A stretch of DNA of 63,177 bases, counting the filler, from Collodictyon triciliatum (Eukaryota), in assembly GCA_043381765.1 (NCBI GenBank). It is 5 parts of 5 records of this genome, joined end to end, with 100 filler letters (N's around TTAATTAATTAA, not from the genome) between each part and the next. Parts side by side here need not be neighbours in the genome. Positions count along the whole stretch, not along the records: positions 55,378 to 63,177 come from JBHJMP010002037.1; 4 more parts are not named here. One strand, given 5' to 3'. Numbering within the stretch: position 1 is the stretch's first letter; every line of letters starts with the position of its first letter. The position numbers and the translations under genes are program-made. Below the pieces are notes generated by a model. That model did no database searches, was not told the DNA's origin, and saw only the letters and a list, made by a program, of their open reading frames with translations. This document shows positions 55,849 to 58,800 of this stretch, piece by piece.

Positions 55849-58800
55849 TTATGATGCTTTGGACTGCAGGACTGCGTCGAGGTCGATGATGGCTTCGTGG
55901 GTCAGGGTCTGTGGGTCGGGATCGGATTAAAGAGTAGTCCGTTCGTGTGGTTGCGGGATGAAAGGTCTGCGTTGTGGTGTTACTTTACCTCTGGTGCGGA
56001 CGAGGTAACAAGGACGTCGTCTTCCAACCGGATTCCGATTCCCCGGAGGCTGAGTTGATTGTTTTTATTATTATTCATTATTAATCATTTCGTCTGCCTC
56101 TTCTCTTTTTATCCTTTAAAGGTAAAGTCTATATATTACTCAGCTGGGATGTCGGGCTCGTCTGGGATGTAAATGCCGGGCTCTACGGTGACAATCATCC
56201 CCCTGTAAAAAAGGAAGACGAAAGAAAAAAGACAGAAAAAAGAAAATAACTATTAAACAGAAGGAAAAGGAGAACAATAAATAAGTTGGATGCTACACGT
56301 TACAAACAGCTTTAGTTTTGAACCAAAAGGAGGAAGGGTATATCTCACGCACGGGACGAGCTTTGTTGATGTCGGAATGATTGGTGTGTCGTGGACGTCC
56401 ATTCCCAACCAATGGCCGATGGAATGCATGTAAAACCGCGTGAAATTCTATGAAAGTATGCCACTATGAATACTACGTAGTCCTAAATATATAGGTACAG
56501 CCGGGAAGCATGACAATAGGATATGTTATGATGGGCAAAAATTTATCATATTTTATCAAATTTATGACATTATGATTCAGAATATACTCTAGATTCGATG
56601 TTTTCCTGGACAGTTCCTTTCAAAAGGCCAAGCTTTATTTTTCCCCGTAAGTTACCAAGTAAAATGAAATAGTTATGTAAATAATTACAAACTTAAAAAA
56701 AATGAGACACATAAGGGTGATATGTATGTAATTAAAGTACATCAACAAGGGCCTGAGTAAGAAGTTTGATGGATGTTTGGTGGTTTCCTTGGTGGCTATT
56801 GCCTGGGATACAAAGCTACATGAAACGGAAAATAATAATTTAGTCTTTAGCCAGCATCTCCACCATCCTGCACAAAATTGAAAGGAAGAATAAAAAAAAA
56901 ATTAATAATTTAGTCTTTAGCATTCCAGATGACTAGCTCTGTTTTTTCTTCTTCTCTCCTTCATCCATTCATTTTTGATATGAAAGCGGAAAAAAAACTT
57001 TGCCTTCAATTACTGTCGTAGCTAGTTGATTACTACACACTGTGAATTTTGAAATACCTTTGTAATATCCTTTAGCACCCCGTGAACAGCCTCATAAACA
57101 TCTGCTTGTCCCTTCGTCATAGTTTCTATTTGGTTTGTTAGGAGATGAACCCTTATATGCTCATAAAGAGAAAACGGTGCCACTGTTATTATGATTTCAA
57201 TATACTGCGTATTTGTGTGGTCAAGTATACAACAAGTTACTTCCTACTGGCCAGGTTCTTGTAATATCGCTTGAGTAGCCATACAACTCACATCCAGAAT
57301 CAACCAAAACCAAAGTCCCATCGCTTGCCGTAAATATTATGATATATGTGTTTATTAATTGGTATTCACTAACAAGGTAAAATTGATTTTTCACTTTCCG
57401 TTTCAATTTAATAATAATAATAATAATAATAATAATAATAATAATAATAATAATAATAATAATAATAATAATAATAATAATAATAATAATAATAATAATA
57501 ATAATAATAATGTTTTAAAGCCCACTCAAGGAATTCATCGTTTCGGACGTAATGTAATGTGTTTGCACGTGAACCTCCGGCAACAACAGGTGGATATGCA
57601 TGCCACTTAGTAAAGACAATGTGATTAATAGGTGTGAGTTCTATAGAAAGATAAGCATACCTACCAATCCTCCTTTTTGTCGAAATTCGAATTCCAATTT
57701 CGCATCGATGAAACTCTCGTTAATTCCCGGACGAACGGATTTAATAACCTAGTTGTGAAATACCAAAAAATAGGTTCAAAATATTTAGACATGCTTCTTA
57801 AGATTTGCATGTTTCGTTATAATGAATAAATGGATTAATGTAAAACAAAAACACCAAAGCCAATATCCCCACCATCTTGCACAAAATTGAAAAGAGGAAT
57901 AAGAAAATGCACAAACAAAACAACAAAAAACAACAAAAAACAGAGATTCGACAAACTTCATTGAACGATCGGGCGGATATAGAACAAGCTTTTCTCATCA
58001 TTTGTTGTTCTATTAAATTATAAATCAAGAACAAGAATATATGTGGTGTATAAACCACGTTTGTAGTGAAACTAAATATAATTGCCTCGAAACTACTTAT
58101 ATGTTATTGTTTTTGTAAATGTATTTTTTTCCTTTATTCGATTCAAAGTTTGTAAATGTATTTTAAAGTAATTCGTTAATGATATCTAACCAGCAGCTGA
58201 TTTTACATTCCTCATGGATTGTACAAGAAATCGATTGTCCACTAAGCCTTTTCCATCTAAAAAGAAGATCGAAGATATTCAAAAAGCTGATGAATTGATA
58301 ACATCTAGACAATTATAAAGAGCAAGCTTATAATTTTATAAGATGCAAACAATATAGTCGTAAATACATACTGGATGAATTGAAGTAAGACGGATCAAAC
58401 TGCGAGTGCAAGGATTGGTCGGCGTATATAACATCAACTTCTCTTGCATACTTTGACAGCACAGATGATAAGTTGGACATCGGCTGTGCCTGTTTGTATA
58501 TTTCATTATATTTATGAGTGGGATGACATCAACTAATCTTTTATTTTCTGAATAACTAAGTCACATAAGATAATATCCATCGTTATGTATGAGCAAAATA
58601 ACCTCATCTACACCAAACATGTCTTTTGAAGCATCAACACCGTTTCTGGGGCCATCCCATATTTCTCTGATTGAATTTTACAAAAATAAATGATTTTTTC
58701 CTCAAATAAAGTTAGTTATTGACTGCATGTATGGGCGATATTATGTCCATCAAGGAAAGAGATTACTACCTTTGTCTGTCCTTCGGTTGAACGAACAATG

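Follow-up and report, generated by a model that had tools for sequence, protein, structure and literature searches.

The window analysed here, that is, the whole stretch of 63,177 nt from Collodictyon triciliatum, is gapped, intron-rich eukaryotic DNA with flanking genes that carry dynein, MORN, kinase, and ITPR-like domains. It seems to consist of several joined assembly pieces, since only positions 27712-41450 map to one contig of assembly G000, and since runs of N lie on either side of a short TTAATTAA-type spacer near 27660, 41500, and 55330. On the minus strand, positions 27660-28860 hold a frame with ~40 tandem 10-aa repeats (KDAGWETSKP-like). Three A-tailed pieces of 33-48 bases, termed Family B, are real insertions in this window, and chance is excluded; 0 of 100 shuffled sequences matched the Family B 21-mer, and the reversed control gave 0 matches in assembly G000.

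Copies 1 and 2 both lie inside a minus-strand M24 metallopeptidase gene. Copy 1 is an insert of 51 nt on the plus strand (56852-56902), and the perfect 19-bp TSD reported for it by the first-pass annotation was confirmed, the repeat at 56833-56851 being the same as that at 56903-56921. Its 40 element bases (56852-56891) fall wholly within the 51-nt 3′ UTR of the Family B LINE, show 94% identity to a long genomic copy in L263, and are followed by a tail of A10 plus T (56892-56902). The last three bases of the left TSD (AGC) also match the element, so the 5′ end of copy 1 lies 40-43 nt from the element end. Copy 2 (57853-57907, plus strand) is an older tip of ~48 nt with a decayed tail and a decayed, doubtful TSD, and shares 85% identity with a long copy elsewhere in the genome. 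Copy 3 (7129-7170, plus strand) comprises a tip of ~33-34 nt and an A tail with 93% identity to a long genomic copy, and its sub-variant is also present in L224, L243, and L250; it lies within a (TATAT)n microsatellite, which leaves its TSD impossible to delimit. Several copies adjoin long (AAT)n, (TAT)n, or (TATAT)n tracts (L012, L017, L168, and window 7170-7375), which seem to have grown from the tail or the TSD. As had been noted at first, no Family B parent is present in the window, although a sister LINE is.

The contigs of run X1 were taken as RNA-like, a guess from a single feature, namely seven GT-AG joints within 55400-57400 that skip introns of 90-242 nt. One of these contigs joins 56815 to 57058 and thereby removes the minus-strand GT-AG intron at 56816-57057 that contains copy 1. 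Judging from reading-frame continuity and GT-AG ends, copy 2 probably lies in an intron at ~57749-57956 of the M24 peptidase gene and copy 3 in an intron at ~7032-7403 of a trypsin-like gene, both in antisense orientation. The first-pass description of all three copies as intronic and antisense therefore stands for copy 1 on the basis of the X1 joint, and for copies 2 and 3 as a prediction from frame and GT-AG ends.

The reverse strand of every copy reads as a T-run, a pyrimidine tract, and TGCAG, which raises the idea that the antisense tip is kept for making splice acceptors or new introns. The slight antisense excess described below would agree with such a role, as would L128, where the element inserted across a donor site and duplicated it. 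However, the only joint seen at copy 1 falls at the native acceptor, which lies 52 nt downstream, splicing at the element AG would shift the frame, and sense intronic copies are common (L123, L143, L156, and L176), so that we regard this role as highly improbable. No X1 joint uses the splice-site-like reverse strand of copy 1, in contigs that would drop rare isoforms; thus, at the single copy tested, the element was not seen to supply splice sites. The copy in L128 (1440-1560) is 42 nt long and antisense, and sits across an exon-intron boundary of an ankyrin gene; its duplicated donor site could spare the gene or make a 32-nt extra exon. In L114, L115, and L116 (~position 1500), short copies lie in sense orientation 80-370 nt downstream of long coding frames; at such a site, their AATAAA-type end could serve as a poly(A) signal.

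The orientation of the copies relative to genes was assessed from the three best-scoring frames around 99 of 100 copies, using Pfam, with L140 left out as it sits in a LINE. Pfam matches were obtained at 39 loci, from which L020 (conflicting strands), L149 (an LTR element), and L168 (a weak match opposite a long frame) were dropped, and the remaining 36 were classed by hand. Antisense copies outnumbered sense copies by nine to four among the firmly intronic copies (p 0.27), by 17 to eight when probable intronic copies were included (p 0.11), and by 21 to 15 among all 36 copies with an oriented neighbour gene (p 0.41). The first and last of these counts do not bear out antisense orientation as a genome-wide rule. 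A strict rule was likewise rejected with a codon model, whose five settings gave 20:17, 18:7, 21:16, 13:7, and 16:11, with one p < 0.05, uncorrected. A mild antisense bias, about 2:1 at most and not significant, is plausible, and the three-of-three antisense copies in the window fit chance.

In assembly G000, the terminal 25-mer of Family B has 475 exact matches and 1,073 matches at up to two mismatches, and the last 16 nt plus four A have 682. Additional copies with TSDs, proposed at the outset as a check, are thus abundant: among the first 100 of the 475 exact tips, which form our main sample, 66 have a clear TSD of 14-25 bp, perfect in 46, with a mode of 16-17 and most lengths at 15-19 bp. 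The median A tail of these 100 copies is 10 nt. The target consensus is WWW/AT, with A at position -1 in 58 of the 66 sites, T as the first non-A base in 53, and an A-run of a single base in 38. The human L1 endonuclease site is the T-rich TTTT/AA, from which the consensus of these targets differs.

The insertions usually retain only 20-60 element bases. In the main sample, the median homology is 42 nt, with 82 of 100 copies at 64 nt or less and 15 of 100 at 100 nt or more. When the 25-nt floor of that anchor was lifted by adding 47 new places among the first 100 short-motif matches, the resulting shorter-anchor set (n=100) had a median of 36 nt, with 10 copies of at least 100 nt and 20 of 17-24 nt. 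A hard floor at 25 nt was rejected, as nine of these 20 shortest copies have a clear TSD. Anchoring on exact matches favours young copies, and long ones are therefore under-sampled: when 30 copies were picked by an anchor 153 nt upstream, 19 retained a tip (the exact 25-mer in five) and 11 had lost it. The fragmented assembly also hides long young copies. A rough estimate takes the 409 upstream matches times 19/30, or ~260, over the 1,073 tips, which puts copies of at least 153 nt at up to about a quarter of tips and leaves at least three quarters shorter than 153 nt. Among the long copies without a 3′ tip (11/30, L031-L060), L031 and L035 both stop ~15 nt before the end. In a freshwater metagenome (run X2, queried with 56847-56907), several contigs carry the same tip next to dissimilar flanks, which places the family in environmental relatives as well. 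When DNA runs X2-X4 were examined for polymorphism or an empty site, none of their contigs crossed the insertion.

The first-pass reading of Family B as a LINE 3′ tip was borne out, in that longer tips run on continuously into an ORF2 reading frame with a zf-RVT domain. In L263, 521 open codons (PF13966, zf-RVT, E 4e-8) are followed by a stop, a 51-nt UTR, and a tail. Farther upstream, L091 holds an open frame of 749 aa with PF03372 (Exo_endo_phos) at 8-233, PF00078 (RVT_1) at 517-729, and the motifs GDFN, SDH, and YADD. It is joined to the tip via L106, L264, and L263; the overlap of L263 with L106 (RT) is 95% identical, and L106 and L091 are each 94% identical to L264. Extension of the matches in the 5′ direction, another of the proposed checks, thus reached an ORF2 with RT through overlapping copies. 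Altogether, copies with ~88-99% DNA identity tile the element through ORF1 (L286 and L277), EN-RT (L091), RT-thumb (L106), and thumb-to-tip (L263 and L191), and yield a parent with a putative ORF1 (511+ aa), ORF2 (APE endonuclease, RT, and zf-RVT), a 51-nt 3′ UTR, and an A tail. No single intact full-length Family B copy was found, the structure being tiled from broken or gap-ended copies, and many of the long copies lack large internal stretches across the RT (L101, L264, and L265).

The ORF1 frame ends just before ORF2 in L286, its start and the 5′ UTR lying beyond the sequence reached, and has no Pfam match; the 1.5 kb upstream of the endonuclease is common to at least seven loci. No RNase H family was found by Pfam in the three ORF2 pieces scanned. 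The best PDB match of ORF2 is human L1 ORF2p (E 7e-45), across both domains, and the match to R2 is weaker (E 2e-19) and covers the RT part only. Among database ORF2 proteins, the best matches are L1-type at 23-26% identity, and ORF2 was called L1-like from its domain content and closest protein matches. With Tx1-type specificity in mind, the targets of Family B are dispersed rather than one repeat. These data indicate that Family B is very probably the 3′ tip of an autonomous two-ORF L1-like LINE, whose short copies are dead-on-arrival, 5′-truncated products of TPRT.

An independent miniature SINE of ~42 nt, with a 3′ end shared with a LINE and its own master copies, would account for the recurrent 5′ start at 42 nt, and SINEs often borrow LINE 3′ ends, according to an excerpt of PMC7245038. 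The sequence, however, is entirely LINE 3′ UTR without an added head, and copy lengths grade without a break from 17 nt up to kilobases, with a 42-nt class that mirrors the allele mix of the long copies. The miniature SINE offered by the first-pass annotation was thus not supported, as 5′ ends are staggered from 17 nt to more than 1.6 kb and continue straight into the ORF2 frame; its companion check for Pol III or RNA-gene heads gave no Rfam match in any of three parent loci. We accordingly hold an independent SINE to be most improbable.

A sister LINE is present in the window at 19051-20654 (plus strand), as an internally deleted, gapped fragment that holds the C-terminal part of ORF2 with zf-RVT and terminates in the tip of a second family, Family A. 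Compared with a Family B copy, this fragment shows 68% DNA identity over 1 kb and 61% protein identity, and other Family A copies show 50% aa identity in the C-terminal half and 70% in the pre-RT/RT region. By these identities, Families A and B are sister LINE families with different 3′ UTRs. The two had been called unrelated at first, which holds for their tips and 3′ UTRs but not for their parents (68% DNA and 50-70% protein identity). A Family A micro-insertion with a 16-bp TSD lies at 58112-58164 (minus strand), in sense orientation, in the same M24 peptidase gene as copies 1 and 2; further Family A tips match at 7608-7634, 10725-10755, 45972-46009, and 46999-47036, and two of the Family A tips, at 7608 and 58112, run in the same direction as their host genes. 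Both families leave TSD-flanked stubs, and so the micro-insertion pattern extends to more than one family, as had been anticipated.

L100 was rejected as the Family B parent because it looks chimeric, with 88% similarity to Family A in its 5′ half; the true Family B endonuclease-RT is of the L091/L106 type. In L100 and L105 alike, a 5′ half resembling Family A is followed by a 3′ half of Family B, which makes them possible recombinants. A 1,500-codon open frame of an LTR retrotransposon adjoins LINE fragments in L093 (3646-8145, minus strand). The ORF2 C-termini of both sisters end in a motif that resembles the PIP-box consensus, namely QFLITDYF in Family B (L263) and QLAITDFF in Family A (L109). 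The motif is retained as QTAITDFF and QSVITNFF in relatives at 41-55% identity to Family A (proteins P0106, P0111, and P0115) and absent from four distant full-length relatives; ORF1 (L286) carries QTNIASFM. The motif suggests that the ORF2 C-terminal tail may bind PCNA, unlike human ORF2p.

The 5′ junctions of 82 short copies with a clear TSD comprise 34 blunt junctions, 31 with microhomology, and 17 with extra bases, the last class being a script's call that includes some alignment artefacts. Microhomology of at least 2 nt occurs in 18 of 60 junctions, against 6.8 expected from shuffled pairings. Of the 34 blunt junctions, nine begin at precisely 42 nt from the element end, compared with four at 33 nt and two each at 41 and 43 nt (42-nt peak, P 9e-5 against a smoothed length distribution). 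The junction ranges of 16 of the 82 copies include 42 and those of 12 include 33; the range of copy 1 (40-43) is among those that include 42. Internal alleles differ among the 42-nt copies (L007, L125, L130, L146, L221, and L244), which argues that this class does not stem from one master and that several source elements stop alike. The tails of these copies also vary, so the hot spot follows the base, and a fixed cDNA length was rejected. A terminal hairpin as the cause of the stop was rejected too, as Family B and A tips fold no better than shuffles (z 0.03, -1.20, 0.14, -0.71, and 0.21). Blunt TSDs end in T in 26 of 34 cases against 16.8 expected (p 8e-4), and in 18 of 25 against 11.8 expected without the 42-nt class; beyond the TSD, no A/T excess like that of a first nick is seen. 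In Family A, six of nine short copies with a TSD begin 17-19 nt from the end.

The best explanation of these features is TPRT with early joining. ORF2p would nick an A/T-rich site, and the A tail would prime with one or two paired bases at the nick. The RT would then copy a few tens of bases, and its product would be linked early to the second-strand end, either bluntly or through short microhomology, with joining presumably favoured at template positions 42 and 33 nt and at target ends in T. An excerpt of PMC10760644 describes microhomology at truncated L1 junctions, and an early switch to second-strand synthesis is proposed for truncated L1 in PMC7617806. Against this explanation, random early joining does not account for the sharp 42-nt peak, and the WWW/AT target is unlike the T-rich human L1 site.

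Truncation at insertion might instead be ordinary, and the short spectrum might arise afterwards, as purifying selection and deletions act in a genome that is dense in genes and has introns of 90-240 nt. The skipped introns in the X1 contigs are indeed small, long copies are decayed and have often lost their 3′ end (11/30), and selection against long inserts in stickleback and shorter elements near exons in mammals are described in excerpts of PMC3381678 and PMC3088655, respectively. Length selection, however, is unable to pick base 42 over its neighbours, which have two blunt junctions each, and short copies occur outside coding regions too (L114, L115, L116, and L118). As the source of the short spectrum, this account is possible but somewhat unlikely; it can operate alongside TPRT with early joining, and selection in small introns probably removes longer copies too.

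A different account keeps the same parent and enzyme and places the 5′ end in the template: short RNA fragments with fixed 5′ ends, such as decay or slicing intermediates that ORF2p protects, would be reverse transcribed, and the RT would run off the fragment, add a non-templated A, and jump to a target end in T. The blunt junctions at exactly 42 nt from more than one master, the T-ended blunt TSDs without an A/T excess behind them, the extra bases at some of the 17 junctions noted above, and the recurrent start of short Family A copies would all agree with run-off at defined ends. Excerpts of PMC10830420 and PMC8594491 report, respectively, non-templated addition with template jumping by human ORF2p and the guiding of R2 RT jumping by a 1-nt overhang; an excerpt of PMC10760644 calls the cause of L1 truncation unclear, with RNA degradation or cleavage as one option. 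Most junctions, however, lie away from the hot spots, microhomology is present in 31 of 82, no stable RNA structure occurs at position 42 (z 0.03 to -1.2), and the same junctions would also arise if the RT paused in a sequence-dependent way or if the second nick preferred T. We therefore consider short templates rather unlikely, and the same doubt applies to the corresponding claim that LINE RNA is cut or decayed to defined 3′ fragments (42 and 33 nt plus tail in Family B, ~18 nt in Family A) that are still integrated by ORF2p. If it were true, the stubs, which number in the thousands, would preserve a fossil trace of a defence by the host at the RNA level, and would offer evidence, at the resolution of one base, on the cause of LINE truncation. 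In a variant of this account, position 42 is set by a ribosome at the ORF2 stop: the stop starts at -54, and position 42 is 16 nt from the first base of the codon preceding it. A distance of 16 nt is that of a ribosome toeprint. In keeping with this variant, none of the 82 junction ranges covers 52-59. The 18-nt start of Family A, however, is far from its stop, which speaks against the variant, and we consider it very unlikely.

Family B stands beside the L1-clade LINEs (human LINE-1; L1/Tx1) and their 5′-truncated TPRT copies. In common with them, it has a putative ORF1 and an ORF2 with an N-terminal APE, RT, and C-terminal zf-RVT, an A tail that immediately follows an AATAAA-like end, TSDs of variable length (7-20 nt in human L1, according to an excerpt of PMC7617806), and 5′ truncation with microhomology or extra bases (excerpts of PMC10760644 and PMC10830420). 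Unlike L1, its ORF2 is only ~25% identical to any database ORF2, and its ORF2 C-terminus has a PIP-like motif in place of the NTE or wrist sites of human ORF2p. Its 3′ UTR of 51 nt, tails of ~10 nt, and WWW/AT target also differ from those of human L1, as does its single-base truncation hot spot. The median insert is 36-42 nt, whereas truncated somatic human L1 copies are mostly below 2 kb in an excerpt of PMC10760644. In the case of SVA, a TPRT product with non-random 5′ truncation points likewise, the element is non-autonomous and the hot spots are called only "potential" and lie in kilobase elements, as stated in an excerpt of PMC10681720; the Family B hot spot, by comparison, occupies a single base no more than 42 nt from the tail. 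LINE-partnered SINEs are similarly short, A-tailed, and TSD-flanked with a LINE-type 3′ end, but Family B has no RNA-gene head and no fixed full-length form, and consists of LINE UTR or ORF2 throughout. Another close counterpart is the Family A LINE (19051-20654; L109 and L094), which has the same architecture, the same C-terminal PIP-like motif, and micro-insertions with TSDs of 14-22 bp, and differs in an unrelated 3′ UTR of 93 nt and a preferred start ~18 nt from the end rather than at 42 and 33 nt.

Our searches of the open-access literature listed no LINE family whose copy lengths have a mode below 60 nt and whose truncation has a hot spot at one base. A stickleback repeat survey, in an excerpt of PMC3381678, tabulated copies above 100 and 300 bp; stubs such as these fall under the usual repeat-annotation cut-offs, and LINE activity in compact protist genomes may therefore be undercounted. 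Most copies stop within 60 nt, with sharp family-specific stops and more than 1,000 readable junctions per family, and they form a natural data set to separate early second-strand switching, short RNA templates, and selection. The mechanism of insertion is itself a known one and the truncation is unusually extreme, and what is new here is the LINE family, its parent structure, its copy counts, and the 42-nt hot spot.
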